From: Pseudobacteriovorax sp.
GTDB lineage: Bacteria > Bdellovibrionota_B > Oligoflexia > Oligoflexales > Oligoflexaceae
DNA length: 14,379 nucleotides
NCBI GenBank assembly: GCA_050293845.1
Contig: JBNKNM010000143.1
Location: 1 to 14,379 of the forward strand
Direction of reading: 5' to 3'
Of the stretch, positions 1-14,379 are shown piece after piece; position 1 is the stretch's first letter, and the number at the start of each line of letters is the position of its first letter. The position numbers and the translations under genes were made by a program. The notes below the pieces were generated by a model that was given only the letters and a program-made list of their open reading frames with translations, ran no database searches and was not told the origin of the DNA.

Positions 1-60
1 GAATCGCTGGTGCCTAAAGTGGCCCAGGAATCCCCCACTATAGCCGCATCAGCGGTTTAG
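1..60 (+). CDS. tnpB: Probable C-terminal fragment of a TnpB (partial, 5' truncated by the window)
   Basis: Frame 1 reads ESLVPKVAQESPTIAASAV*. ESLV matches the C-terminus (GRESLVS*) of the TnpB at 1877-2914. It could equally be a non-coding MITE-like remnant. Confidence 0.45.
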   Translation, partial: ESLVPKVAQESPTIAASAV

Positions 61-77
61 TGGCGGGAGGACGTCAA
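1..77 (+). mobile_element. Right end of a second IS200/IS605-family (tnpB-type) element, truncated by the window edge
   Basis: 1-77 aligns with the reverse complement of 1829-1894. Shared blocks: GAATCGCTGGTG, TAA, AGTGGCCCAGGAATCCCC and GAGGACGTCAA. GAAT sits at the foot of a subterminal hairpin (CCACTA-TAGCCGC-ATCA-GCGGTT-TAGTGG) and TCAA is at 74-77, the IS608-type right cleavage motif. Confidence 0.85.
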
Positions 78-80
78 TGA

Positions 81-668
81 CTACACACTCATTGTAAAGT
101 TCCAGAAAGCATGTAGTCCAATCGCGGCAATTAACCCGCTTCTAAGAAAGACAATCGTAAGGATTATTGAACCTGGAATATACGTAGTAAAGAATTTAAA
201 AAATATATTCCAAGGTCCAAACTGGCAATGAGCCAAGGTAAATAGCAAAACAGAGACAGTACACAATAAGACTGTATTGATACCTCTATCAGAAAAATAA
301 CCGATTAGAAAGCGTCTGAAAAAAACTTCCTCAAAAATGGGTGATATCACTGCTCTATCAATTATTTTCCATGCATATTCTAACCCAGATACATCTGGCA
401 TTGGTTGTCCTACACCACCTTCAATGGGAGGGACGAACACTAAATAATCATATGTCTTTGTTACTGTGATTAAAGATATAATTGATATTATATAATACAT
501 GCCTATAAGTAATATTGTTTTAAAAAACCCTTGATAATTTTTAAGAATATCATCTTTTTTTAAGATCAATATAGCAAGCATTTCAAAGTAAATTGCTATT
601 GATCTAAAATAAAAATTAGATATCGTTACTAGCATTATTATAACAACATATAATACAATTAAATTCAC
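81..668 (-). CDS. CPBP (CAAX protease/Abi) family intramembrane metalloprotease
   Basis: Motifs EEVFFR (EExxxR), FTLAH (FxxxH) and HAFWN (HxxxN) in a multi-TM 195-aa protein. GTG start 1 nt after the upstream stop, with a GAGG RBS. Confidence 0.9.
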   Translation of the reverse strand: MNLIVLYVVIIMLVTISNFYFRSIAIYFEMLAILILKKDDILKNYQGFFKTILLIGMYYIISIISLITVTKTYDYLVFVPPIEGGVGQPMPDVSGLEYAWKIIDRAVISPIFEEVFFRRFLIGYFSDRGINTVLLCTVSVLLFTLAHCQFGPWNIFFKFFTTYIPGSIILTIVFLRSGLIAAIGLHAFWNFTMSV

Positions 669-669
669 T

Positions 670-1680
670 CTATGCCTCTGGGTCTAGACATCCTGCAATT
701 GATCCACAACCGGGTAAGCTTGGGCTTGGTGTTTCTCCATGCCTGCATGAAATTGATCTATAGCTGTATTTCCAATCTCCATAGTTACATGTTTTATAAG
801 TCAACTGCTTTCTGCCATTCCTACAACGACTCTCACTGTCTAGTTTCTTAATTCCATGTAGGTATCCATTACATCTTTTCGGTGCACATAATGTATTGTC
901 TTCCTCATACCCATCGTCGCAATTAACTTCTGTTACTGCTAGTGATGCATAGCTGCAAGTGTAATGCTGTATGCCATTATCTATATATTTATGTGTAGTC
1001 TCACCAGGCTGATATGCTCTCTCTGGGTAAAAACAAGGAGCATTAAAACTTACAAATTCACCTGTACTAAATAATTGAATCATCTCAATCTCTGGTCCTG
1101 TCTCATCATCCACTAGAATATACCTTGCCTCTCTTGTGAATGTTCCGAGAACATAAACACCCTCTGCAAATTCATAAGGTACTAGCGGTTGAAATTTTAT
1201 AATCATAGTACCATCGTGATGCGTAATTACCATCTTGGTACAGGCATTCGATGCGTTTATAGATAGGCAATGCCTTGTCTCTTTCTCTTTCACTTTTTCA
1301 CCTTTACTATTAAAAATTGTTTCGGTCGTTCTTACATCCGAAACAAACGATCTATCAAAAATTGCTTTCAGTGTGTCAAAACCTTCTTTAAAAAATCTGT
1401 CAATGATATACACAAAAGCTTCATCAGATAGTTCTAATTTTTTTTCCTTGTCTAATTTTGATAGTCCTTCCGCGTCCGAAGGAATGGGATCAGGTGCTTG
1501 ATTTCTTCTGCCTATCTGCTTGCCACCACCAAGAGATTGTCCCACAGCTAGATCGCCACCTGAAACCATTTCATGAAATTCATATGGTCTTAATCTTGGA
1601 CCTGTTACTTCAATGACTTCTGTTTTCATTGCATAACCGTAATTTGAAAAAATGAGTAAACTTAGGAATAGCAATTTCAT
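670..1680 (-). CDS. Secreted cysteine-rich hypothetical protein (336 aa from the ATG at 1680)
   Basis: ATG at 1680 is preceded by AAGAGG and begins a signal peptide MKLLFLSLLIFSNYGYA. 12 Cys, 10 of them in the C-terminal ~120 aa. The ORF track start at 1728 is probably too far upstream. Confidence 0.8.
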   Translation of the reverse strand: MKLLFLSLLIFSNYGYAMKTEVIEVTGPRLRPYEFHEMVSGGDLAVGQSLGGGKQIGRRNQAPDPIPSDAEGLSKLDKEKKLELSDEAFVYIIDRFFKEGFDTLKAIFDRSFVSDVRTTETIFNSKGEKVKEKETRHCLSINASNACTKMVITHHDGTMIIKFQPLVPYEFAEGVYVLGTFTREARYILVDDETGPEIEMIQLFSTGEFVSFNAPCFYPERAYQPGETTHKYIDNGIQHYTCSYASLAVTEVNCDDGYEEDNTLCAPKRCNGYLHGIKKLDSESRCRNGRKQLTYKTCNYGDWKYSYRSISCRHGETPSPSLPGCGSIAGCLDPEA

Positions 1681-1808
1681 TAAAAACCTCTTTAATATGT
1701 TTGTGATATTTCTTTGTATCCCAGTCATAGCTTGACTTTTAAGCCGTGTTAACTCATTTGTAAATTAAATTTAAGATGGTGTTTATTGCCAACAAAGTTT
1801 CAATGACA

Positions 1809-1960
1809 ATTACTAAAAACCAACAGAGTTGACGTCCTCACCCATGGCTAAAGCCAAGGGGATTCCTGGGCCACTATTAGGACACCAGCGATTCACGCCC
1901 GAATCGGAGAATGTTCAGAGCAGCATTCACGTCACGATCATGGACCGCTCCACAATTGCT
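1809..1960 (-). ncRNA. Predicted TnpB omegaRNA: scaffold overlapping the tnpB 3' end down to 1829, guide from 1828 (CTCTGTTGGTTTTTAGTAAT)
   Basis: Right-end hairpins and TCAA boundary seen in sequence; existence inferred from known TnpB systems. The 5' end (1960) is a guess. Confidence 0.55.
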
Positions 1961-2914
1961 GCACACCCACTCTCTTACCCCAAGACCTTTCAACCCTTTC
2001 GGGCCGCTATCTGGAATTTCTTCGCAGCTAGAACAGATCTGAGTTGAGAAGTTCTCGGGAACTTCTACGAATATACGATGCTGCTGCGCGCTCGCTTTAT
2101 ACTTCAGCATCGTTTTGAATGCGGTGGTAGCCGCATCATTGACAGATTTTGCCATTTTAGTTTTGGCTAGTCCCTTTGCTCCAAACTTACCTACAACTAT
2201 TAGGCAGTTTTCTTGGACGATTTCAGTTGAAGCTTTGTGCAGATCGTCCATTCTCTTATTGCGAATCTTTGCGTGGATTTTCCTAGCTTGCCGCTTTTTT
2301 TTGTGCTTCTGCGCACGAGAAAGCTTTCGCTCCATCATCCGATAGTAGCGCCCGTTAGATACCTTTTTGCCACTAGAGAGCGTGGCGACGTCTTTCAGAC
2401 CAAGGTCAATGCCAACTTCAGCGCGAGCATCGTATTGTTCTGGTTCGTATTCGATAGGAATGCAGATATACCAACGACCTCTAGAGTCCTGACAAAACTC
2501 TCCGCTCTTGTAGTCAGATTCGGGAAGACGCTCCGGTTGAAATAGCCAGTAGGACTTTTTATTGAAGGTCACAATACCGTCTTTGAACTTGATACAATCA
2601 TGGCGAAAGGGAATCCACCCCAAAGACTTTCGACCACGCCATCTGAGTTTTCTTTTTTTGAACTGCCGTCTTCGTGTTACATACTCACGACAAACCATTT
2701 GTACAGAAGCAGAATTCAGCCCAAGTTCTTTGTTAGCGCCTTTAGTTAGCTTCTGAAGATCTTGATAACTAAGCCATTCACTGTTTTTCCGTACAGCTTC
2801 GAAAGAGGTTTCATTGCAATAATTCCAGACAAAATTGATTGCCCTAGCCATACGGTTCAGCTCTTTACAAGCTGTACTGTCTTTTATTCGTATTTTTAGG
2901 GTTTTTGTTGCCAT
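1877..2914 (-). CDS. tnpB: TnpB RNA-guided endonuclease (IS605 OrfB), 345 aa, RuvC-II-rearranged type
   Basis: RuvC-I VGIDLG (D170), zinc finger CSSC...CSNC, RuvC-III DRDVNAALNI (D328). Gly242 occupies the canonical RuvC-II Glu position and Glu287 lies in VPENFSTQ. GAGGA RBS. Confidence 0.95.
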   Translation of the reverse strand: MATKTLKIRIKDSTACKELNRMARAINFVWNYCNETSFEAVRKNSEWLSYQDLQKLTKGANKELGLNSASVQMVCREYVTRRRQFKKRKLRWRGRKSLGWIPFRHDCIKFKDGIVTFNKKSYWLFQPERLPESDYKSGEFCQDSRGRWYICIPIEYEPEQYDARAEVGIDLGLKDVATLSSGKKVSNGRYYRMMERKLSRAQKHKKKRQARKIHAKIRNKRMDDLHKASTEIVQENCLIVVGKFGAKGLAKTKMAKSVNDAATTAFKTMLKYKASAQQHRIFVEVPENFSTQICSSCEEIPDSGPKGLKGLGVREWVCSNCGAVHDRDVNAALNILRFGRESLVS

Positions 2915-2939
2915 TGCAATTCCTCTACTTATGAGCTAG

Positions 2940-2968
2940 ATCATAGCCAGGAGGTAATACAGTGTCAA
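2940..2968 (-). promoter_or_regulatory. Near-consensus sigma70 promoter for tnpB/omegaRNA
   Basis: Minus strand: TTGACA (2968-2963), 17-nt spacer, TATGAT (2945-2940), about 25 nt upstream of the tnpB ATG. Confidence 0.8.
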
Positions 2969-3384
2969 CGACAAAAAACTATCTAAGATCACATCATCAT
3001 TGCATATATAAGATTACCTATCACTTAGTGTTGGTGACAAAGTACAGGCGAAAGTGCTTCACAAAAGAAATCCTCGATCGCCTTCAAGAGATCTGCAAAG
3101 ATATCTGTGAAAAATGGGATATTGGGCTTATCGAATTCGGTGGAGAACAGGATCACATTCACTTACTTTTGGACTTTCATCCTTCGGCTCAGCCTAGCAA
3201 ATTCGTCAATAATTTGAAGACTGTCAGCTCTAGGCTTATCAGGAGAGATTTCAATGATCATCTTGCAAAATTTTACTGGAAACCTGTTATGTGGACACGG
3301 GCCTATTGCTTGTTATCAGCGGGGGGTGCACCAATTGAAGTCATCAAGCAATATATAGAAAATCAGGAAACGCCTACAGAATGA
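2962..3384 (+). CDS. tnpA: IS200/IS605 Y1 HUH transposase TnpA
   Basis: YHLVLVTKYRR, HUH motif DHIHLL, catalytic Tyr in KQYIENQ; 140 aa; GTG start with AGGAGG RBS. Confidence 0.96.
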   Translation: MSTTKNYLRSHHHCIYKITYHLVLVTKYRRKCFTKEILDRLQEICKDICEKWDIGLIEFGGEQDHIHLLLDFHPSAQPSKFVNNLKTVSSRLIRRDFNDHLAKFYWKPVMWTRAYCLLSAGGAPIEVIKQYIENQETPTE

Positions 3385-3567
3385 TTGCTCACCTCGCTTT
3401 TGCTCGGATCACAATTCGCCTATCCATCTCCCCCTAAGCCTCGACCACCTTCGGTTGTCTACGTTCTAGAGGGAGAATTTCGGCGAGTCATGTTAAACCA
3501 TTTAACTATTGAATATTATTTAGAAAAACCATTCGAAATCATCACCGAAATGAACTCATTTCCTGAA

Positions 3568-3642
3568 TGGCGGCCCCACCAGGAATCGAACCTAGAACTA
3601 ACGCTTAGGAAGCGCTTGTTATATCCGTTTAACTATGGGGCC
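3568..3642 (-). tRNA. tRNA-Arg (anticodon CCT)
   Basis: Reverse complement GGCCCCATAGTTAAACGGATATAACAAGCGCTTCCTAAGCGTTAGTTCTAGGTTCGATTCCTGGTGGGGCCGCCA: acceptor stem GGCCCCA/TGGGGCC, anticodon loop TT-CCT-AA, T-loop TTCGATT, encoded CCA end. Confidence 0.96.
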
Positions 3643-3657
3643 ATCAAAGGAACTAAG

Positions 3658-3686
3658 TAAATAACAGATTGTAGCGCGATCGTCAA
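3658..3686 (-). promoter_or_regulatory. Possible tRNA promoter
   Basis: TTGACG, 17-nt spacer ending TGT, then TATTTA (imperfect -10), about 15 nt upstream of the tRNA. Confidence 0.4.
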
Positions 3687-3707
3687 CGAACCCTAAAGGG
3701 CTCGTTA
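3684..3707 (-). terminator. Stem-loop after the pdhC stop (possible terminator or processing hairpin, no U-tract)
   Basis: TAACGAGCCC-TTTA-GGGTTCGTTG, 6 nt after the pdhC TAG. Confidence 0.45.
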
Positions 3708-3713
3708 CAAAAG

Positions 3714-4985
3714 CTAGCTCAGCATCATTAGTGGATCTTCTAAATAGGAGACCAAGGACTGCAGAAACTCCGCACCTAAGGCCCCATCTATGACGCGATG
3801 ATCACACGACATAGTCAACTTCATACGCGGCTGTACCGTTATCTCGCCACTATCGCCAACCCAAGGTGTCGGAATGGTAGCTCCTATCGCCAGTATAGCT
3901 GACTGCGGGGGATTAATGATGGCGGTGAACTCTTCAATTCCCATCATGCCCAGATTGGAAATGGAGAAGGTTCCTCCCTGGTATTCTTCAGGTTTTAAAT
4001 CACCTGACTTGGCCCGCCCTACAAGATCTTTGGTCATCATCGCTATGTCTCTAGCCCCGAGACGATGGGCTGCTCTAACCACTGGTGTGATGAGTCCATC
4101 AGGAACCGCTACCGCCACGCTGATATCGGCGGAGCCATAACGACGAATAAAATCTCCCTGCCAGGAAGCATTCACTGCGGGATGTCTTATAAGGGCCTTA
4201 GCACAGGCTTGGATGATCAGATCATTAACACTCACTTTCGACATGCCTGAAGTCGCAGCTTCTTCATTCAAGCGTTTACGCCAGGCCATTAACCTCTCCA
4301 TATTAACAGAGCGGGTAAGGTAAAAGTGTGGGGCATCGTTCTTTCCTGCAAGCAACCGCTTAGCGATTGTTTTTCGCATCATCGTATTGGGTACATCAAT
4401 ATCTTCTATACCTAGAGCAGGAGCCGCAGGCATGGGAGACGGCTGCGCCATGGCAGGAGTCCTGGCTCGTCCCGAAACTAACGCCTCGTCAACATCGCGC
4501 ATCACAATGCGCCCCTGGGGACCCGACCCCGATAGAGTCGCTAAATCTAGACCGTTCTCTTGGGCTACTTTTTTAGCAAGGGGAGACGCTTTAATACGCT
4601 CACCTCCTGCTGTTGAAGGTCGAGTAGCAGTGCTACTGCTCTCGGTTTTGCTGCTATCCACTGGCTCCGTACTCGCTCGCTCAGCATCTTCTTTTGCACT
4701 ACTTTTTTTTGTAGCTGCCAGCAAGGCATCCAAATCAAAAGCCTCACCTTTTTCGCCGACAATGCATATCGGTGCATTTAGTTCACAAGCTTCTCCCCCT
4801 TTAACAAGAATTTTGAGCAGGGTACCCTCTGCAGGAGAATTATATTCCATGGTAGCTTTGTCGGTTTCCACCTCGACAAAAGCTTCCCCTTCTTCGATAA
4901 ACTCACCTTCTTCTTTCAACCAAGATGAAATCGCACCCTCTTCCATGGTGTCGCTCAGCTTGGGCATTTCAATGATTTCAGCCAT
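3714..4985 (-). CDS. pdhC: Pyruvate dehydrogenase E2, dihydrolipoamide acetyltransferase
   Basis: One lipoyl domain (MPKLSDTMEEG...ETDKA), E3-binding domain (ASPLAKKVA), catalytic DHRVIDGA; in operon with E1 alpha and beta. Confidence 0.95.
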   Translation of the reverse strand: MAEIIEMPKLSDTMEEGAISSWLKEEGEFIEEGEAFVEVETDKATMEYNSPAEGTLLKILVKGGEACELNAPICIVGEKGEAFDLDALLAATKKSSAKEDAERASTEPVDSSKTESSSTATRPSTAGGERIKASPLAKKVAQENGLDLATLSGSGPQGRIVMRDVDEALVSGRARTPAMAQPSPMPAAPALGIEDIDVPNTMMRKTIAKRLLAGKNDAPHFYLTRSVNMERLMAWRKRLNEEAATSGMSKVSVNDLIIQACAKALIRHPAVNASWQGDFIRRYGSADISVAVAVPDGLITPVVRAAHRLGARDIAMMTKDLVGRAKSGDLKPEEYQGGTFSISNLGMMGIEEFTAIINPPQSAILAIGATIPTPWVGDSGEITVQPRMKLTMSCDHRVIDGALGAEFLQSLVSYLEDPLMMLS

Positions 4986-4995
4986 CGTTACTACC

Positions 4996-5976
4996 TTAGT
5001 TTAAGTATAAAACCTGTTTTACTGCCTTGATGATGCGGTCGGGCTGTGGCAGCACGCGCTCCTCTTGTGCTTCATTATACGGCATGGGAACAAACTCATT
5101 GCTGACGCGCTTGACGGGAGCATCAAGATAATCAAAGCATGCATCCTGGATGCGATCGGCGATCTGGGCACCCACAGAAGCAAATCCCCAAGCTTCCTCC
5201 ACAATCACCACCCGATTGGTCTTACGCACCGATGCAAAAATCAAATCCTCATCGAGGGGTTGTAGCGTGCGCGGGTCAATAATTTCAGCGTTAATACCAT
5301 CTTTATGAAGCTCTTCACAGGCCTTCACAACCTTGTGGTATACTTTGTTCCAACAGATGATGGTAACATCGGTTCCAGAGCGCTTAATATCTCCCTTCCC
5401 GAGAGGAATCAAGTATTCTTCTTCAGGTACCTCTCCCTTCAGCCCATACATCATTTCGCTCTCAAGAAAAATCACTGGATTGTCATCGCGGATAGCGGAC
5501 TTGAGTAAGCCTTTGCCATCATAAGGGGTTGAACAGGTCACCACCTTCAGACCCGGAATGTTCGTCAAGAGAGGTTCTACAGCTTGGCTGTGCTGCGCTC
5601 CTAGCATATGAGCGGCACCATTAGGCCCCCGAAAAACGATGGGCACCTTAAACTGTCCTCCAGACATGTAACGTAGCTTAGCTGCATTGTTGATAATCTG
5701 ATCAAAAGCCTGAATGCCAAAGTTCCAAGTCATCATCTCGATGATCGGCCGGAGACCTGTTAGAGCAGCTCCAATTCCTAAACCAGCAAATCCCCCTTCT
5801 GAAATAGGAGAATCCCAAACCCGCTTGGCTCCGTACTTATCCAAAAGCCCTTTAGATACCTTGTAGGCGCCATCGTATTGTGCAACCTCTTCGCCCATCA
5901 AAAAGATTGTTTCATCGCGAGCCATTTCTTCGTCCATAGCTTGACCAAGGGCTTCGCGAAAGGTTAATAATGCCAT
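4996..5976 (-). CDS. pdhB: Pyruvate dehydrogenase E1 beta subunit
   Basis: MGEEVAQYDGAYKVSKGL, PISEGGFAG, FRGPNGAA..GAQHSQ; no fused lipoyl domain. Confidence 0.96.
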   Translation of the reverse strand: MALLTFREALGQAMDEEMARDETIFLMGEEVAQYDGAYKVSKGLLDKYGAKRVWDSPISEGGFAGLGIGAALTGLRPIIEMMTWNFGIQAFDQIINNAAKLRYMSGGQFKVPIVFRGPNGAAHMLGAQHSQAVEPLLTNIPGLKVVTCSTPYDGKGLLKSAIRDDNPVIFLESEMMYGLKGEVPEEEYLIPLGKGDIKRSGTDVTIICWNKVYHKVVKACEELHKDGINAEIIDPRTLQPLDEDLIFASVRKTNRVVIVEEAWGFASVGAQIADRIQDACFDYLDAPVKRVSNEFVPMPYNEAQEERVLPQPDRIIKAVKQVLYLN

Positions 5977-6002
5977 ATTGTATTCTCTTTCGTAGCTCAG
6001 TG

Positions 6003-6983
6003 TTATACTAATACATGATCGAAGGCTTCATCCACGGACGGATTTGGTGAATTATCAGCAAATTCCTCAGCATCCTTGGCTTCCTGTTTTGCTGCCTTAT
6101 CCCACTCCTTTAGCTGCTCTTCTGTGGCGATCTTTTTTTCCACCAAAAAGCTTCCGAGGCGCTTAATAGGATCATAATTTTTTTGATACTCTTCCACTTC
6201 CTGCTTCGTCCTGTATGTCCCAGGGTCGGATACGGAATGACCCCGGTAACGATAAGTCAAAGCTTCTAGAAAATGGGGTTTTTTACCTTCCCTCATGGTC
6301 GCTGCTATCTTACCCACATGATCGCAGACTGCCATAGCATCCATACCATCCACATCCGAGTGGGTCATATCAAAGGCTAAAGCCCGTTTCCATAAGTGCT
6401 CTACACTGGTGGTGCGATGGATGTCTGTTCCCATGCCATATTTATTATTCTCGACAATAAATAATACAGGTAGACTCCAGGTAGCCGCCAGATTCATAGC
6501 TTCGAAAAACTGCCCTTGATTGGTGGCAGCATCACCCAAGTAGCAGACACAAATATCATCTGTTTCCTGATAGCGGATGGTAAACCCTACACCTGCGGCG
6601 ATAGGTACCTGCCCACCGACAATGCCATGGCCGCCAAGGAAGCGCAGAGGCTCTGAAAACATATGCATAGATCCCCCTTTCCCGCGACAAATGCCACCTT
6701 CCTTACCAAAAAGCTCAGCCATCACCTGCCCAGGCTTGATGCCTTTGCCGATAGCCTGGGTATGAGATCGATACCCTGAGATCAAGTAATCGGTAGGTCT
6801 AAGAACCTGTTGCACACCAACAGCCAGCCCCTCCTGCCCAATATGAAGATGACAGAAACCGGAAAATTTCCTTTTTGTGTAGGCTAAGCCTACTCGCTCT
6901 TCAAACCTTCTAAAGAGGCACATCTGCTGATACATGGAGATGAGCGTCTCGTGATCGATACTTAACTTTTTACTATTCGCCAT
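6003..6983 (-). CDS. pdhA: Pyruvate dehydrogenase E1 alpha subunit
   Basis: GFCHLHIGQE, GKGGSMH, TPP-binding GDAATNQG...ENN, TYRYRGHSVSDP. Confidence 0.96.
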   Translation of the reverse strand: MANSKKLSIDHETLISMYQQMCLFRRFEERVGLAYTKRKFSGFCHLHIGQEGLAVGVQQVLRPTDYLISGYRSHTQAIGKGIKPGQVMAELFGKEGGICRGKGGSMHMFSEPLRFLGGHGIVGGQVPIAAGVGFTIRYQETDDICVCYLGDAATNQGQFFEAMNLAATWSLPVLFIVENNKYGMGTDIHRTTSVEHLWKRALAFDMTHSDVDGMDAMAVCDHVGKIAATMREGKKPHFLEALTYRYRGHSVSDPGTYRTKQEVEEYQKNYDPIKRLGSFLVEKKIATEEQLKEWDKAAKQEAKDAEEFADNSPNPSVDEAFDHVLV

Positions 6984-7079
6984 ATTTTCTCCCTAACAGC
7001 ATAGACTATGAAAATAGTCCCGGCGGCAAAGCAATCATAGGAACTGCTGCCGCCAAATGATTGTCATGGTAACAAATCC

Positions 7080-8312
7080 TCAGTCAACCGCGCGAAATGC
7101 TATTGTTGCATTGGTACCCCCAAAGCCAAACGAATTTGACAAGGCGGCTCTTATTTTCTTTTCTCTAGCATGGTTTGGAGTGTAGTCCAAACGGCAATCG
7201 GGGTCAGGTGTAGTATAATTCGCAGTGGGAGGGACAATATTGTGATGAACCGATAATGCAGTATAGATTGCTTCTATGCCCCCTGCTGCTCCAATACAAT
7301 GCCCCGTAACTCCTTTTGTCGAAGAGATTGAGATCTGCTTTGCAGTAGCTCCAAAGGTCTTCTCTATGGCTTCCGATTCATATTGATCGTTCAGCTTTGT
7401 TGAGGTTCCATGGGCATTGATATAGTCCACGTCCTCTGGATTTAAGCCAGCACTGTCCAGAGCCATTTTCATACAGCGCTGGCCCCCTTCTCCATGGGGA
7501 GCAGGAGCTGTAATGTGATAACCATCTCCCGATAATCCATAGCCAATGACTTCTGCATATATGTGAGCACCGCGCTTCCTGGCAGCTTCATACTCTTCAA
7601 GAACAAGAATGCCTGCACCTTCGCCCATAATAAAGCCATCACGATGCAGATCAAAGGGCCGAGAGGCTATAGCTGGATTGTCATTAGCAGCACTAAGAGC
7701 TTTGAGGGCTGTAAAGGACGAAATTCCCAAAGGTGAAATAGTCGATTCGGCTCCGCCACAAACCATGGCATCCGCTACCCCTGTCTGAATATAACGGAAG
7801 GCTTCACCCACCGCGTGGCTGCCACTAGCACAAGCCGTTGTGGGACACATATTGGGGCCTTTCAGGCCAAAGTGAATCGATACATAGCCCGCTCCCATAT
7901 TGGGAATCGTGAACGGAATGAAGAAGGGAGAGATACGTCGCTCACCTCTTGCATCGAGGATACGAGTGCTGTTTTCGATAGACTCCAATGAGCCCATACC
8001 AACCCCGACAGCACAGCCAACCCTATGGGGGCGATTCGCAATTTCAATGCCAGAATCTTTGATGGCTTCTTGGCTCGCTACCACGGCAAACTGAACAAAA
8101 CGACTTAGTTTTCGTTGTTCTTTTACATCAATCACAGCGGAAGGATCAAAGTCTTTCACCTCCCCAGCAATTTTTACTTTCTGGCCTTTTGGGTCGAAAA
8201 GGGATATCCGTGTCACTCCAGACTGGGCGTTTAAAGCGGCTTTCCAAGCCTCTTTAACACAAGAACCTGTTGGAGCTACCATCCCTAAACCAGTTATTAC
8301 GACACGCCTCAT
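7080..8312 (-). CDS. fabF: 3-oxoacyl-ACP synthase II (410 aa from the ATG at 8312)
   Basis: MRRVVITGLG start with GAGGGTG RBS; Cys-His-His triad in TACASG, NAHGTST and GHCIGAAG; C-terminal SNSFGFGGTN. Confidence 0.95.
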   Translation of the reverse strand: MRRVVITGLGMVAPTGSCVKEAWKAALNAQSGVTRISLFDPKGQKVKIAGEVKDFDPSAVIDVKEQRKLSRFVQFAVVASQEAIKDSGIEIANRPHRVGCAVGVGMGSLESIENSTRILDARGERRISPFFIPFTIPNMGAGYVSIHFGLKGPNMCPTTACASGSHAVGEAFRYIQTGVADAMVCGGAESTISPLGISSFTALKALSAANDNPAIASRPFDLHRDGFIMGEGAGILVLEEYEAARKRGAHIYAEVIGYGLSGDGYHITAPAPHGEGGQRCMKMALDSAGLNPEDVDYINAHGTSTKLNDQYESEAIEKTFGATAKQISISSTKGVTGHCIGAAGGIEAIYTALSVHHNIVPPTANYTTPDPDCRLDYTPNHAREKKIRAALSNSFGFGGTNATIAFRAVD

Positions 8313-8430
8313 TATCACCCTCTGCTCTAATTGACATGAAAGTTCTACCATCCAATTATCAAATACCTTACGGGATAGCACTCTATTTTTTGTGTAGAGT
8401 TTGTAAAAACTACATATACATCTTTTCAAT

Positions 8431-9639
8431 TCATGGCAGCGATCGAGGTCGTCGTAATTTCTTTAGTCCTGGAATATATCGGGGGTCCAATGTCGACTCC
8501 GAAGGTGGCAGACGATTTTTTTGGACAACCAAGAACGTACCAAAACTCAGCAAGATGACATTTGGCAGCCATGCTGCCATGGGAGCACCTATCATGCCCT
8601 TTTCTGCAGCAAACTTAAAAGCCATGAGAAATACATAGCCTAATATAATAGTTAAAACAGCTCCCAAGTAACCAAAACTTCTCCCTTTTCGCTCATCTTG
8701 TATGCCCAAGACCATTGCAAAACAAGCAAAGGTGATGCACGAAAACGGCAGTCCTATACGCTGGTGGAGAAGAAAGCGTGCCTTATAGTATTCTTGTCGC
8801 TTAATCGGGTCCGTTGTCTCTTTCAAGGAATCTACATGATTCCACAGTTGCAGCGGGGTATAGCTACGATAGTCATCGCTTGCAGAGTCAGGGCCAAAAA
8901 TTTGCTCTTGAAAAATGCGGATAAGATCCAGTTCGGCCTTTTTAAACTTTACCACCGAAATTTCGTCGCTACCCGAGCTATTGGAATAAATCACACCATG
9001 TCCGAAAGACATTCTTAGATTCCCTTCCTCCACAGAGCCTTTCACACCACCCATAGGTGCCAGTAGGGTGAAGTTCTGATCTTTATTCTTACCACCGGGT
9101 GCCAGCATCACGTTCTCAAATCGGGTGCGATCCGGGGATATCGACTCCGCATAGAGCACATAACCTAAAAAGTCATCAAGGAAGACTCCCGGTTTTAATT
9201 TGACCCGCAACATGTTATCCAATTCGGTTTGTGTTTTGCGATGGTAAAATTGAATCGTTTCGCGCCTTCCCCAGGGCTCGAAATTCAAAGCGCAAAAAAC
9301 AGCTACGCCATATAAAATGGCACCGATAAGCATGACTGGTACCGCCGCCCTTTTAAGGGAATAGCCAGCAGCGAGCATGGCAGTAAACTCGCCGTCGGAA
9401 GAAAATCGGCTAAATGCCAAGAGAACAGCAAACATATAGGCTATGGGGATGGTAAATGCCAAAAAAGGTACCATAATAAATAGAAAAGGTAGGAGAATGT
9501 TTTCCAGTGTTAACCCAAAGGTAACAAGCACCTCGGACAAGCGTATGAGCTGGGACACCACTATCACTGCACTCAGAACACATAGGGAAGTTATAAACTG
9601 CGGTAAAATTTCTTTTAAAAAGTAAATAAATAGCGTCAA
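8431..9639 (-). CDS. LptF/LptG-family LPS export permease (LptF-like)
   Basis: YFLKEI, 3 TM, FSSDGEFTAMLAAG, periplasmic domain, 3 TM ending AAWLPN. Likely TTG start at 9639 (AAGGA RBS, 7-nt spacing) rather than 9711. Confidence 0.88.
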   Translation of the reverse strand: MTLFIYFLKEILPQFITSLCVLSAVIVVSQLIRLSEVLVTFGLTLENILLPFLFIMVPFLAFTIPIAYMFAVLLAFSRFSSDGEFTAMLAAGYSLKRAAVPVMLIGAILYGVAVFCALNFEPWGRRETIQFYHRKTQTELDNMLRVKLKPGVFLDDFLGYVLYAESISPDRTRFENVMLAPGGKNKDQNFTLLAPMGGVKGSVEEGNLRMSFGHGVIYSNSSGSDEISVVKFKKAELDLIRIFQEQIFGPDSASDDYRSYTPLQLWNHVDSLKETTDPIKRQEYYKARFLLHQRIGLPFSCITFACFAMVLGIQDERKGRSFGYLGAVLTIILGYVFLMAFKFAAEKGMIGAPMAAWLPNVILLSFGTFLVVQKNRLPPSESTLDPRYIPGLKKLRRPRSLP

Positions 9640-9756
9640 AAATTTTTCCTTAAGGAGCTTTTGTCCAAATTGGTGCTTTGTAGCCCAGATCGAGATATTA
9701 AATGCCCTCATGATCCGATATAATGATTAGGTCACTTTGAACCAAGGAGCAGCTAA

Positions 9757-10950
9757 TTGCCTGCAACTATATATAAATACTACATTTCCTTACTTTTTTC
9801 GATATGGGTTTGGTGTATAATTTCTCCGGTTTTGGCAAAGGATAGTAATAAAGACATCCCCATAACCTTCCCCTCTTGGGAACATGCTGCCATCGCCCAT
9901 ATCAACAACCGTCCCGTACATATAGTTCCACGGATTCAATCGAGATTAAAACAATTTTTAAGGCACAGAGGAGATCCTGTTGCCGCCATGATGATTGTCG
10001 AGGTCAGTAGTGGCAACATCCTAGCTATGGTTCAAGGGGCTTCCCCAACCACTTGGAATAGTCTCACTAATACTAACTTACATACAGGCTTTCCAGCAGC
10101 CTCCCTATTTAAGACTGTCGTAGCTGCGGCAGCTTTAGAGAACATGCCTTTAGATCCGCGTAAGAAATTTATCCTTGATGGGGGGTGCGGCACCATCAGC
10201 CCCAAAGGCTATTGGATGCGAAACGATCTGAAAGGACGTCGCTTCCAACTCGATTTACGCCGCGCTTATGGGTCAAGCTGTAATGGTTTCTTTGCAAAAA
10301 TGGCAGTCAATGAAATTGGTTTTGGCCCCATACTGGATATGGCACATCGATTTGGTTGGAATCAGAATGGAGTTCCCGCCGATTTTACCATACCTGTGAG
10401 CCCCATAAAGCCCCCAGACCCCAGTGTTTCTTCCGCCCATATGGTGGGTCGTTTCGCGGCTGGATTTGGTTATGTGGGATTATCTGTGGCCCACGCCGTT
10501 TGGCAGATGCTCGCTATCGCCAACTATGGCTACGCTAAACCCCTATCTCTTTTCAGCGATGATATAGACCAGAGCATAGCCCCCGTTCCCCATCGACAAA
10601 TCATTCAACCCACAACGGCTGAAGATTTACTCAGTATTATGGACGCTACGATTCTTGGGGGCACCGCCAGCTCGTCTTTTAAAAGGGGGCGTTACCGTAA
10701 AATTCGTCGTCATATCGGAGGAAAAACTGGAACCCTTACGGGATCTTTTCCTAGAGGTGTGACAACCTGGTTTGCTGGTATGTACCCATTGGATCAACCA
10801 GAAATTGTGGTAGCATCAGTGGTAGTGCTTAAAGATCTTTGGCATATCAAGGCTTCAGACCTGGCAGCAGAGGGAATCATTTCCTACATTGATTTCAAGA
10901 GAAGCTCTAAGATTGCGAAACTAAAGATTAATCAAGGTAACAAAAATTAG
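9757..10950 (+). CDS. Penicillin-binding protein, transpeptidase-domain-only, with N-terminal signal/TM segment
   Basis: SxxK (SLFK), SxN (SCN), KTG (GKTGT), plus WFAG; TTG start with AAGGAG RBS. Confidence 0.88.
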   Translation: MPATIYKYYISLLFSIWVWCIISPVLAKDSNKDIPITFPSWEHAAIAHINNRPVHIVPRIQSRLKQFLRHRGDPVAAMMIVEVSSGNILAMVQGASPTTWNSLTNTNLHTGFPAASLFKTVVAAAALENMPLDPRKKFILDGGCGTISPKGYWMRNDLKGRRFQLDLRRAYGSSCNGFFAKMAVNEIGFGPILDMAHRFGWNQNGVPADFTIPVSPIKPPDPSVSSAHMVGRFAAGFGYVGLSVAHAVWQMLAIANYGYAKPLSLFSDDIDQSIAPVPHRQIIQPTTAEDLLSIMDATILGGTASSSFKRGRYRKIRRHIGGKTGTLTGSFPRGVTTWFAGMYPLDQPEIVVASVVVLKDLWHIKASDLAAEGIISYIDFKRSSKIAKLKINQGNKN

Positions 10951-11041
10951 AACGCTACTATCTTTTAATACGAATTGACCTACCTGCTTGTTCTTTGTTA
11001 CCAAGCCTATCGCTACTTATTCAAACTTGAGGTCCACCAAT

Positions 11042-11974
11042 ATGAGTCAAAACACCATTCCCGTAGTCGATTTAGAAGATTATTTGTCGGATGATCCTAC
11101 TCGTCGTCAAACATTTGTAGATGCTGTTGGGAGCTCCCTCCGTGACATCGGCTTTTTCGCCTTAATCAATCACCGGATTGATAACGACCTCAAAGACAAT
11201 GCGTATCGTGTATCACAAGAGTTCTTCGACCTTCCCGACTCAGCTAAGGCTGCCTATGAAAAGCTAGAAATTAAAGGACAAAGGGGTTACACCTCATTCG
11301 GTCGTGAACACGCTAAAGATTCTAACGCTCCAGACCTAAAAGAGTTTTGGCATGTGGGCCAAGAACACCCTCAATCAGATTACCCTGCAAATATTTGGCC
11401 CCAAGAATTACCTGAATTCCAAAAAGTGATGACATCCGTTTACAGCAAATTAGAATCCTGCGCCTTTTCAGTTCTGGAAGCATGTTCTCTATTTATCAAT
11501 GAAGATAAGAAAGTTCTTAGGGAAATGGCAGAAGACGGAAACACCATCCTCCGGCTCATCCATTACCCACCCATCCCTGATGATGCTCATCCATCAAGTG
11601 TTAGGGCTGCTGCCCATGAAGACATCAATCTGATTACGCTGCTTATAGATGCCACAAGCTCGGGCCTTGAAATCCTTGATCGCCATAACAATTGGCTACC
11701 TGTGGTCACTCCTAACAATAGCATTATTATCGACTCCGGAGATATGCTGCAGAACGTTACCAATGGGTATTTCAAAGCAACAACTCATCGGGTCGTAAAC
11801 CCAGAGGATTCCAGACAACGACGGTTTTCTATGCCATTTTTCGTTCATGCTCGCAGTGAAGTGCCTTTGAATCCACTTCCAAGCTGCCTGGCATTGACAG
11901 GGGATCAAAAATATCCCGATATTACTGCTGGACAGTATCTCCATCAACGACTGGTAGAAATCGGCTTGGCTTAA
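11042..11974 (+). CDS. Isopenicillin N synthase-family 2OG-Fe(II) oxygenase (310 aa from the ATG at 11042)
   Basis: IPVVDL..GFFALINH N-terminus, LRLIHYPP, HxD (HED), distal His (THRV), RxS (RFS); GAGG RBS before 11042. Confidence 0.92.
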   Translation: MSQNTIPVVDLEDYLSDDPTRRQTFVDAVGSSLRDIGFFALINHRIDNDLKDNAYRVSQEFFDLPDSAKAAYEKLEIKGQRGYTSFGREHAKDSNAPDLKEFWHVGQEHPQSDYPANIWPQELPEFQKVMTSVYSKLESCAFSVLEACSLFINEDKKVLREMAEDGNTILRLIHYPPIPDDAHPSSVRAAAHEDINLITLLIDATSSGLEILDRHNNWLPVVTPNNSIIIDSGDMLQNVTNGYFKATTHRVVNPEDSRQRRFSMPFFVHARSEVPLNPLPSCLALTGDQKYPDITAGQYLHQRLVEIGLA

Positions 11975-14004
11975 ACTACTTCCGGATCTTTGCGAGAACG
12001 ACTTCGGGGGTCTTGATAAAGGCTCAAATTACTAGCGATTAATGTTTGCCCCTCCAGCTGGGGGGTGAATTTAATTTGCATACCAGCCTCTACCTTAAAT
12101 ATACTCGCTTTTTTAATATCATAGGGGAAAAACATAATTTGCCGGGCTCCTAGGCTGGAATCATCAACCTTAAGCCACCCTACCCTTGATGGGTTGTAAG
12201 ACATCACTTCACCAACAAATTCATTCTTGATGGTAGTACGATCCACTGTCATAGACCCGGATAGATCGAGTTTTTCCAGGGCAGATTTCATAGCTATGTG
12301 CTTATCATCACCTTTTTTAACCATTACATAGAGCATATGTTTAGCTCTTGTACTCGCCACATAGAACAGGCTCGACATAATGGGATTCGTAATAGACAGG
12401 TTATATTCACTGAGATTGACAATGATTCCTACATGGGTTTCTAAACCTTTGAATCCAGCTATAGTGGATACGCGGGTTTTGGCTTGCATTTCCTTATCTG
12501 TCCAGCGCTCGACCTTAGCAGGAGTCATATGAATCAGTTCGTGCTTGCCCAATTTTTTATGATTGTGCAGAATAGAACCGTCATGAAACGGCTTTCTGGC
12601 ACTCAATAATGTCACTTCTTGAGGACTTAAACCTTCCACCTGATAAAGCCGACTCAACAGATCCTTTAACTTATGCCGGGCATCTTGCTCATCTTCATAT
12701 ACGACAAGTTCTGGCACATAGCCCAACCTCCCCGAGTGACTTTGGAGAATCTCCCGACCCGTTCGAAATGAACGCGAAAATGTCGATATTTCTCTTGTTG
12801 TCCGATAATTATTGACCAAAGGAAAGTATGGAGTATCTATGGGTAGCACGTCTTCGGGTATAAAAGTTTCTTCAGCTGAGCCGGAGCCAAAAACCCCTTG
12901 ACTGCGATCAAAAAAGATATAGAAATGACTCTCTCCTTCGTCCCGCAGAACGGTTTCAATGGATTCCCACCAAAAAGGCTGCACATCCTGGGCTTCATCA
13001 CAGAGCAAGACATCGTAACGCACATCAGACGCCAGAATCGCTTCCTTCAATCGCTCGGGTCCCACATACTGAATCCAATCATCTCGCTTGCCTTCAAACT
13101 GAGCAGGTCGTCGCAACAGCTCGACTCCATATGACGATGCTAGCTCCGCGTAAGTTTTGACTTCGATCTCTTCCCCAACCTGGTCTTTGAGAAAAGTATT
13201 TAACATCGCGTTGCTGGATAACAGTAGAACTTTCTTACCTAAATTGCGAAAGTGTTTTGCCAGAATCATGGCCAGTAATGTTTTGCCTGTTCCTGCTTCG
13301 CCTTCAATGGCTAATCTTTGCGCGCCAGCGATGGGAGTCACTAAAGTCTCGTGTACTGTCTCCACATCCTTAACCTTCATTTCGTGATTATCTAAATAAT
13401 CACGCAAATAAAGTTTTGTGGAATAGGAAGCACCCTTCAGGGTCAAATCGATGCTCTTGCGAACATCGGAAAAATGCAAATATTTTTCTGGATGAACCTT
13501 GGCACAAACTTCCTGCAGATAGGATTCCAACTGGGTGAGGCGATTGCGACCTAGAATCAGCATGGGCTCGACTTCCGCACCGTTGACGATATCCGATTCC
13601 ACGACATTGGGAAAACAAACTAAATGCGTGGCAGGTACCTTGATGCCACGGCCTTTCATAAACCGTAGAAATCGACTTTTCCAAACTAAAGCCTGTTGAA
13701 AGGGATTCCTGATGGAGAAGGATTTCCCATGGCGGTTGATGGAATGAAATTCCCCACTACTAACATCGTACTTGATTTGACCGCCTTTAACTTCAATGAC
13801 AAAGACCCCATGTTGCGGATGATAAAGCACAAAATCGATTTCATTATCCAGCAAGCCCCTACCGGGCTCCAGGGCCGAAAGGGTGCATGAGTAATAGACA
13901 CTCCAGCTTTTGGGGAGGTTTCTACATTTTTCATAAAATTGTTCTTCTGCCTGACTGGCAAATACTACGCGGGATGAGTTCGCATCGGGGTAAATCTGGG
14001 CCAT
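11971..14004 (-). CDS. NERD (PD-(D/E)xK) nuclease fused to an SF1/UvrD-like helicase with a C-terminal cold-shock-like domain
   Basis: EIDFVL...VIEVKGG (NERD), Walker A GEAGTGKT, Walker B LCDEAQD, NYRTT, STIAGFKGLE, YVASTRAK. Start at ATG 14004 or TTG 14016. Stop overlaps the oxygenase stop within TTAA at 11971-11974. Confidence 0.88.
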   Translation of the reverse strand: MAQIYPDANSSRVVFASQAEEQFYEKCRNLPKSWSVYYSCTLSALEPGRGLLDNEIDFVLYHPQHGVFVIEVKGGQIKYDVSSGEFHSINRHGKSFSIRNPFQQALVWKSRFLRFMKGRGIKVPATHLVCFPNVVESDIVNGAEVEPMLILGRNRLTQLESYLQEVCAKVHPEKYLHFSDVRKSIDLTLKGASYSTKLYLRDYLDNHEMKVKDVETVHETLVTPIAGAQRLAIEGEAGTGKTLLAMILAKHFRNLGKKVLLLSSNAMLNTFLKDQVGEEIEVKTYAELASSYGVELLRRPAQFEGKRDDWIQYVGPERLKEAILASDVRYDVLLCDEAQDVQPFWWESIETVLRDEGESHFYIFFDRSQGVFGSGSAEETFIPEDVLPIDTPYFPLVNNYRTTREISTFSRSFRTGREILQSHSGRLGYVPELVVYEDEQDARHKLKDLLSRLYQVEGLSPQEVTLLSARKPFHDGSILHNHKKLGKHELIHMTPAKVERWTDKEMQAKTRVSTIAGFKGLETHVGIIVNLSEYNLSITNPIMSSLFYVASTRAKHMLYVMVKKGDDKHIAMKSALEKLDLSGSMTVDRTTIKNEFVGEVMSYNPSRVGWLKVDDSSLGARQIMFFPYDIKKASIFKVEAGMQIKFTPQLEGQTLIASNLSLYQDPRSRSRKDPEVV

Positions 14005-14336
14005 GGGAGTTTCCAATTTGATAGGTGCAACAACTACAATATTACCACGGTTGTACTTTCAAATTCTAAGCCAGTGCTAAGTATCTATTATTGCAGGAAG
14101 CTATGCTTCCTCTTCCCAGAATCTCTGAGCAATTGTCAAAAAGATGTTCATCACGAAGCGGTGCTATAACTGAGTATCTTTCTTATCGAGAAATAATTTA
14201 TAATTTTATCTGATAGTCACAAAAAGATTAGCTTGCGATGGCTTTATTAAAATTAATCTGCTCTAGTTTCTATAGAATCCGAAACGGGCTTACTAGAGCG
14301 AATAGTAAGGTTCAGTGCAGTCTTCAGCCAAAAAGC

Positions 14337-14369
14337 AAAACCCCGACTTATTTCTAAGCCGGGGTTTTT
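14337..14369. terminator. Rho-independent terminator, probably bidirectional (best on the minus strand)
   Basis: Minus strand: CCCCGGCTTA-GAAA-TAAGTCGGGG-TTTTGCTTTTT. The plus strand has one mismatch in the stem and a TTTTT tail. Confidence 0.85.
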
Positions 14370-14379
14370 ATATTTTAAG

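Follow-up and report, generated by a model that had tools for sequence, protein, structure and literature searches.

Here we analysed a stretch of 14,379 nucleotides (nt) from Pseudobacteriovorax sp. (positions 1 to 14,379 of the forward strand of contig JBNKNM010000143.1, GenBank assembly GCA_050293845.1), referred to below as the window, in which the right ends (RE) of two related insertion sequences (IS), element A and element B, face each other across a two-gene cassette. The window begins with the first base of contig C143, one of 741 contigs in an assembly of 6.68 Mb. In its left 3.6 kb lie, in this order, RE-A, a gene for a CPBP-family protein, a gene for a secreted cysteine-rich protein, the upstream region of that gene, RE-B, tnpB, tnpA, a left end (LE) and tRNA-Arg(CCU), and only the two genes with the upstream region are found between RE-A and RE-B. 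The original prediction, made from the sequence alone, had drawn attention to this bracket because both guides expected for the TnpB nucleases would consist of cassette sequence. The features are listed here with their coordinates in the window, lengths of proteins being given in amino acids (aa).

1–77 (+): RE-A, long-stem subtype, ending in TCAA at 77; the terminal 77 nt only
78–97 (+): predicted guide A, a flank of ~16–20 nt, placed by its position relative to RE-A and the TnpB rule
81–668 (−): gene of the CPBP/Rce1-like intramembrane protease family, 195 aa, PF02517
670–1728 (−): secreted cysteine-rich protein gene, a 352-aa open reading frame
1681–1828 (−): cassette upstream region, 148 nt
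1809–1828 (−): predicted guide B, adjoining RE-B and lying in the cassette upstream region on the sense strand
1829–1905 (−): RE-B, short-stem subtype
1829–2044 (−): RE-B with the predicted omegaRNA scaffold, overlapping the 3' end of tnpB
1877–2914 (−): tnpB of element B, 345 aa, PF07282 and PF01385, RuvC-II of the "rearranged" type
2940–2968 (−): sigma-70-like promoter match, TTGACA, 17-nt spacer, TATGAT; 11/12, a consensus match only
2962–3384 (+): tnpA, a Y1 HUH transposase, 140 aa, PF01797, divergent from tnpB
3385–3497 (−): left end of element B, including TTTAAC, resembling a target-adjacent motif (TAM), at 3492–3497
3568–3642 (−): tRNA-Arg(CCU), its 3' end toward element B, at the edge of a variable region

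The geometry on which the original prediction was built was confirmed. The right ends terminate at 77 (+) and 1829 (−) and have the proposed content between them, and 3 nt (78–80) separate RE-A from the CPBP stop codon (81–83). The strands of the predicted guides were also as proposed: guide A is antisense to the CPBP 3' end, covering the last codons, the stop codon and the 3 nt beyond it, and guide B, read from 1828 on the minus strand, is sense to the cassette upstream region.

Both right ends close with the same bases, GACGTCAA, and a search of the genome with the RE core returned 21 matches, 12 of which have the full RE tail (on C38, C53, C54, C60, C67, C137, C143 twice, C174, C249, C339 and C416). 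GTCAA closes all 12 copies, and immediately beyond it no flank is related to another, which fixes the RE boundary. RE-A and RE-B are identical at 35 of 37 inner bases, and their subterminal hairpins differ in sequence, with pairing retained through changes on both sides of the stem. Two hairpin subtypes could therefore be distinguished, the long-stem "A type" of window 1–77 and the short-stem "B type" of 1829–1905, both of which fold as DNA hairpins (z −3.87 and −1.3, respectively) and are also present in other genomes. At the opposite end, about 10 left-end copies were identified in the genome, with homology starting at TTTAAC in five, TTTATC in two, and CTTAAC, ATTATC and TTTACC in one each, and contigs from the sequencing runs X3 and X5 depart from the window sequence exactly at 3497. 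These starts and that point of departure indicate insertion 3' of a TTTAA(C)-like motif without target duplication; the two flanks of element B are unrelated to each other.

The IS family is multi-copy and decaying in this genome. Genome-wide searches gave 17 matches to the TnpB zinc-ribbon (TNB) domain, 14 of them above the cut-off, and 23 Y1-transposase matches, many of these TnpB and Y1 matches being truncated or containing stops, and only one full-length tnpB of the family, that of element B, is assembled. Five of the 12 right ends are less than 220 nt from a contig start; the repeat therefore breaks the assembly. On C54, at ~13808–14176 (−), there is a gene-less mini-element of ~0.37 kb, in which nothing but the left end and a right end of A type is present.

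Element B is a complete IS605-type element with a right end, tnpB, tnpA and a left end with its motif. Its TnpA matched PF01797 (E 2.5e-44, residues 15–135), and its TnpB (TnpB-B) matched PF01385 (OrfB_IS605, E 1.2e-13), PF07282 (zinc ribbon, TNB, E 5.1e-19) and TnpB chains in the PDB (E 5.7e-24). Y1 TnpA, TnpB domains, subterminal hairpins without terminal inverted repeats and the motif/cleavage sites were all found, placing it in the IS605 group of the IS200/IS605 family, with the hairpin evidence weaker at the left end, where the hairpin is imperfect (z −1.18), than at the right end. A megablast of element B against plasmids gave no match. The predicted omegaRNA scaffold yielded a consensus fold from three copies with 69 pairs, six of which are changed on both sides (four of the six in the terminal stem). 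The fold of the single sequence was not exceptional (z −1.69), and an Rfam scan matched tRNA only and no omegaRNA family.

In an alignment to ISDra2 TnpB, whose D191, E278 and D361 we take to be the RuvC catalytic residues, D170 and D328 of TnpB-B correspond to D191 and D361, and glycine (G242) occupies the canonical E278 position. None of D170, G242, E287, D328 and the four zinc-finger cysteines varies among 30 aligned homologues, whose identity goes down to 50%. Altae-Tran et al. (2023, PMC10691335) describe large TnpB clades that have glycine in place of the RuvC-II glutamate and are predicted to complete the site with an alternative glutamate, and by these residues TnpB-B fits the "rearranged, predicted active" class of that paper.

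According to Meers et al. (10.1101/2023.03.14.532601), the guide of TnpB is the DNA adjoining the right end and its target is the donor joint, where the TAM abuts the RE flank. Because this use of the flank as guide is general to TnpB elements, the cassette-derived guides need no special explanation. The 12-nt seed of guide A has no second site in the genome, and that of guide B has two other genomic matches (on C28 and C94), neither of which follows a TTTAA-like motif. Expression of the guides and nuclease activity are presumed here, and the proposal that the two nucleases would cut IS-free alleles is less safe than the original prediction assumed, since the tnpB of element A is outside the window and TnpB-B has glycine in place of the RuvC-II glutamate.

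Element A enters the window only at its very end. Window 1–77 is 100% identical to C67:140–216, with divergence at the next base, and of the k values examined only k = 77 gave overlaps between contig ends (64, compared to none at 21, 33, 55, 99 and 127). As the window starts at the contig start with such an overlap, element A is present only as a terminal k-mer. The copy of RE-A on C67 is preceded by the last 50 aa of a tnpB, 90% identical to TnpB-B, and the first 77-mer of C67 is in no other contig of at least 500 nt, which puts the element A body beyond reach in the assembly. Another study's run, X5, has a contig in which 224 nt of a tnpB 3' end lead into these 77 nt with 0 differences. That element A has a body is thus presumed from the identical C67 copy and the contig of another sample. 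In a Logan unitig of run X1, which covers 48–1440 with 0 differences, the cassette again follows the last 30 nt of RE-A. Since X1 is possibly the source sample, this joint represents a second assembler and not a second sample.

Possibly, only the right end of element A survives at this site, as a solo remnant, or the junction exists in part of the sampled population only. The 77 nt present equal the assembler k, the genome contains many fragments of the family, including at least one LE–RE mini-element (that on C54), and sequence of this 741-contig assembly turns up in metagenome runs, all of which would suit such an interpretation. We nevertheless consider it rather unlikely, as the sole sequence found before this 77-mer in the assembly is a tnpB 3' end (C67:1–139) and the X5 contig has the identical 77 nt in the same setting. 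In addition, the X1 unitig depth of 8.4 over the cassette is near the 10.4 on the side of the tRNA and the 2-oxoacid dehydrogenase E2 gene, although contig depths are coarse.

Two further features of C67 were observed. An AbiEi/AbiEii type IV toxin-antitoxin pair (C67:1057–2470) occupies a low-GC stretch directly after the A-type right end at C67:140–216, and a degenerate tnpA fragment (C67 ~2908–3173) lies beyond the pair.

The CPBP protein has a complete Rce1-like domain (PF02517, E 5.1e-15, profile positions 5–92 of 93). Its only close homologue, P0126 (52% identity, 194 aa), ends at the same residue; therefore, the protein was not truncated by insertion A, and since the CPBP gene is intact an insertion 3 nt past its stop codon was tolerated. 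Translation of the secreted protein likely starts at ATG 1680, downstream of AAAGAGG, for a product of 336 aa with an N-terminal hydrophobic leader and many cysteines. Its stop codon is 1 nt before the CPBP start, and the layout suggests that the two genes form an operon in which CPBP is probably translationally coupled to the secreted-protein gene.

The secreted protein is very rare. One homologue, 50% identical, was found among 5.8 billion clusters, and a search of 1.84 billion representatives gave 11 matches at E ≤0.001, nine of which were at E ≤1e-10. Pfam, PADLOC and the ESM Atlas had nothing similar, and the 352-aa protein had no match in GTDB genome contigs or JGI metagenome contigs. 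Of two structure models, the first had a predicted local distance difference test (pLDDT) score of 33 and the second was confident only for residues ~190–316. Foldseek with the model returned no match at E ≤0.001, and the best VIA result was Z 4.2 over 38 residues, small fibronectin-type-I/EGF-like modules at Z ~4 being below a meaningful level. The family comprising the window protein, P0004 and P0127–P0134 is very small, with members of ~330 aa that have eight invariant cysteines in the C-terminal half. For both of the homologues P0004 and P0126, the only contig listed has a length of 10,013 nt, suggesting that the pairing of secreted protein and CPBP is conserved in one other assembly. The cassette has a guanine-plus-cytosine (GC) content of 31–38% versus 45–53% in neighbouring genes and 41.2% in the genome, and it is probably horizontally acquired accessory DNA.

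The position of element B raises the question of an influence on the cassette. Read-through from tnpB-B into the cassette is plausible from the arrangement of the two: they are co-oriented, a promoter-like site (11/12) lies upstream of tnpB at 2968–2940, and no minus-strand terminator-like site occurs between tnpB and the cassette, as all five such sites in 1–3700 are on the plus strand. Furthermore, the scan gave no promoter-like site in 1681–1828, where by eye a weak TTTACA, 17-nt spacer and TAAAAG can be made out. Potentially, the promoter of tnpB-B could drive the operon by read-through, and convergent transcription from element A could damp or terminate it, the IS pair having been co-opted as a regulatory context. 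This we regard as unlikely. Promoter-like sites were fewer than in shuffled sequence (6 versus a mean of 10.7), so the scan discriminates little, and the 148 nt before the start are intact and may contain a native promoter. The homologous cassette pair in one other assembly also speaks against it, and read-through would be a by-product and in itself no evidence of selection.

The linkage of the tRNA to the E2 gene is common to the close relatives G001, G002, G005 and G006, and the DNA past the tRNA differs among the three relatives G001, G002 and G005; the locus is variable and dispensable. In G005, aconitase and the genes that follow past the tRNA are collinear with C67:14505–19126. C67 might therefore be the physical left neighbour of the window, as hinted by this synteny but unsupported by G001 and G002. 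No repeat of the tRNA 3' end is present in the assembly, and the idea of an integrative island delimited by such a repeat was therefore also rejected.

The original prediction had called for a comparison of relatives for the cassette with zero, one or two elements. The IS family was matched in 10 of 26 related genomes searched, our own included, the closest named carriers being Pseudobacteriovorax and Oligoflexus, from which a host in Oligoflexia is probable. The 352-aa protein was matched in none of 40 relatives (one of 41 genomes, its own), and CPBP was matched in one of the 40, with 30% identity and at another locus. No IS-free (donor-joint) allele was seen among the joints of four runs, in which coverage of this organism is low. 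In run X5 the IS family is nearly intact without the cassette or the tRNA flank. Relatives of TnpB-B in other genomes gave 80 loci, 11 with an RE core match and nine with a genuine right end, and a second inward-facing right end within 4 kb was found at none of the nine, although a diverged right end could have escaped. No specific link between the IS elements and the cassette was thus found in related genomes, run X5 or the nine related loci.

The two right ends share inverted homology, 35 of 37 nt in the window itself and, supposing that element A is like the copy on C67, 92.6% over 176 nt, which might permit recombination that flips the cassette between two expression states. This is extremely unlikely in our view. 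The opposite-strand joints found in contigs of four runs are only those explained by A-type element structure: the X5 joint of 1 to 1895 and the X3 joint of 13 to 1883 are normal A-type elements, in which a tnpB 3' end is followed by RE-A as in C67:1–216, with the limit that the contigs are short and unable to detect a crossover upstream of the distinct hairpins. Recombination would also be inefficient with 7% divergence over less than 0.2 kb of known homology, and the arrangement was seen at none of the nine related loci. A complete working switch, in which read-through drives the operon, element A limits it and recombination turns the module on and off, is likewise very unlikely. If true, it would amount to a switch, built on IS605/TnpB, that controls a surface or secreted factor of horizontal origin in a lineage related to predatory bacteria (Oligoflexia).

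We consider it highly probable instead that two related but distinct IS200/IS605 elements inserted independently and came to flank a low-GC two-gene operon. Two separate insertions would fit with A and B being different subfamily members, as their hairpin subtypes attest. The original prediction had named two independent insertions into AT-rich DNA as its null explanation, and this proved to be the best-supported reading, given the multi-copy family, the differing RE subtypes and the low-GC locus. By GC, the two flanks of the cassette bracket rank within the lowest 3.5% and 7.4% of 1-kb windows, the density of TTTAA is 9.7 per kb in the cassette versus 4.7 in the genome, and a third right end, that on C67, borders another low-GC stretch (AbiEi/AbiEii).

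The order of events that we infer at the locus would be as follows. The operon, probably horizontally acquired, sits in a variable region downstream of tRNA-Arg(CCU). Each element would have entered on the 3' side of a TTTAA(C)-like motif and so come to have this motif at its left end. The right end of each element would consequently abut the sequence that formerly followed the motif, and by the normal TnpB rule this flank would become the guide part of the omegaRNA. The guides would be cassette sequence simply because the cassette happens to be the flank. Excision by TnpA would bring motif and flank together again as a donor site, which TnpB–omegaRNA would then target, and this targeting would favour retention of the element without any cassette-specific function.

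Several observations weigh against independent insertion. A uniform distribution of the 12 copies over 6.68 Mb would give 0.035 expected pairs within 1752 bp, and 0.009 inward-facing ones, which makes the bracket nominally unlikely, with the reservation that this estimate is a post hoc test and that insertion is not uniform. The AT bias of the family is real but modest, only five of 12 RE flanks being below the 16th GC percentile, and the 6-nt motifs TTTAAC and TTTATC are absent inside the cassette. The argument for independence depends on the different RE subtypes, with the body and left end of element A apparently outside the assembly, and the pre-insertion state was seen in no genome or run searched.

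Beyond the tRNA the window has a core-genome context, with a 2-oxoacid dehydrogenase operon (E2, E1-beta and E1-alpha) followed by a beta-ketoacyl synthase (3714–8429, −). Further on, a 681-aa NERD-plus-helicase protein (11971–14016, −) had as its best PADLOC match the RTasNERD-Hel partner of a defence reverse-transcriptase system (E 2.2e-41).

Our results provide a complete IS605-type element with clear boundaries, from a lineage that has been little studied (relatives in Oligoflexia), with its ends and TTTAA(C)-like motif defined, as well as a very rare secreted-protein/CPBP gene pair. A TnpB with glycine for glutamate in RuvC-II could be used to test whether "rearranged" TnpBs cut DNA. The main value of the locus is nevertheless as a warning, since a guide made from a neighbouring gene holds for every TnpB element and is no sign that the gene is targeted.

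CPBP/Abi-family proteins are paired with secreted peptides or proteins in bacteriocin immunity or maturation. The CPBP gene here is comparable in lying directly downstream of the gene for a secreted cysteine-rich protein, but its partner, at 336 aa, comes from a very small family for which neither a known domain nor a fold match was found.

With respect to the IS itself, element B resembles IS608 of Helicobacter pylori, ISDra2 of Deinococcus radiodurans and ISGst1-5 of Geobacillus stearothermophilus, which also combine Y1 TnpA and TnpB with subterminal hairpins instead of inverted repeats. As in IS605/IS608-type elements the right end closes in a conserved tetranucleotide, here TCAA, which is also the IS608 right-end site. 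It differs from those elements in the divergent orientation of tnpA and tnpB, in its TTTAA(C)-like motif and in that two RE hairpin subtypes occur together. TnpB-B also differs from that of ISDra2 in being short, at 345 aa, with 24–25% of its length aligning weakly. Further likenesses to IS605/IS608-type elements (10.1101/2023.03.14.532601) are the AT-rich motif at the left end, the lack of target duplication, the guide taken from the RE flank and the gene-less mini-elements. TnpB-B is similar in sequence to RuvC-II-rearranged clades such as RIIr-5 in having glycine for the canonical glutamate and a conserved glutamate downstream, as described in PMC10691335, which also reports inactivated TnpBs.

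A non-canonical RuvC residue and a guide near a promoter region recall the TldR-type nuclease-dead TnpB regulators. TldRs derive from immobilised, single-copy tnpB genes without transposase or ends and have an inactivated RuvC. In contrast, the tnpB of element B is mobile and multi-copy and is accompanied by tnpA, LE and RE. Its alternative glutamate is invariant, as are two of its three catalytic residues, and the guide match at its own locus is preceded by the right end and not by a TAM. A TldR-like exapted regulator was ruled out on account of the tnpA, LE and RE and the multiple copies in the genome and relatives.

Composite transposons, in which two related IS copies flank a small cargo, are a further system to which the bracket bears a likeness. 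This identity was also rejected, as a right end faces the cassette from either side, the two being on opposite strands, and there is no left end in 1–1828; thus no LE–RE pair encloses the cassette, whereas Y1 TnpA acts on LE and RE on the same strand. A full-text literature search for IS605 composite transposons gave nothing on the subject among the papers listed. The bracket, correctly observed in the original prediction, looks like an ordinary situation and not a new device, with members of a decaying IS605-type family that is resident in the genome lying on both sides of a small acquired operon.

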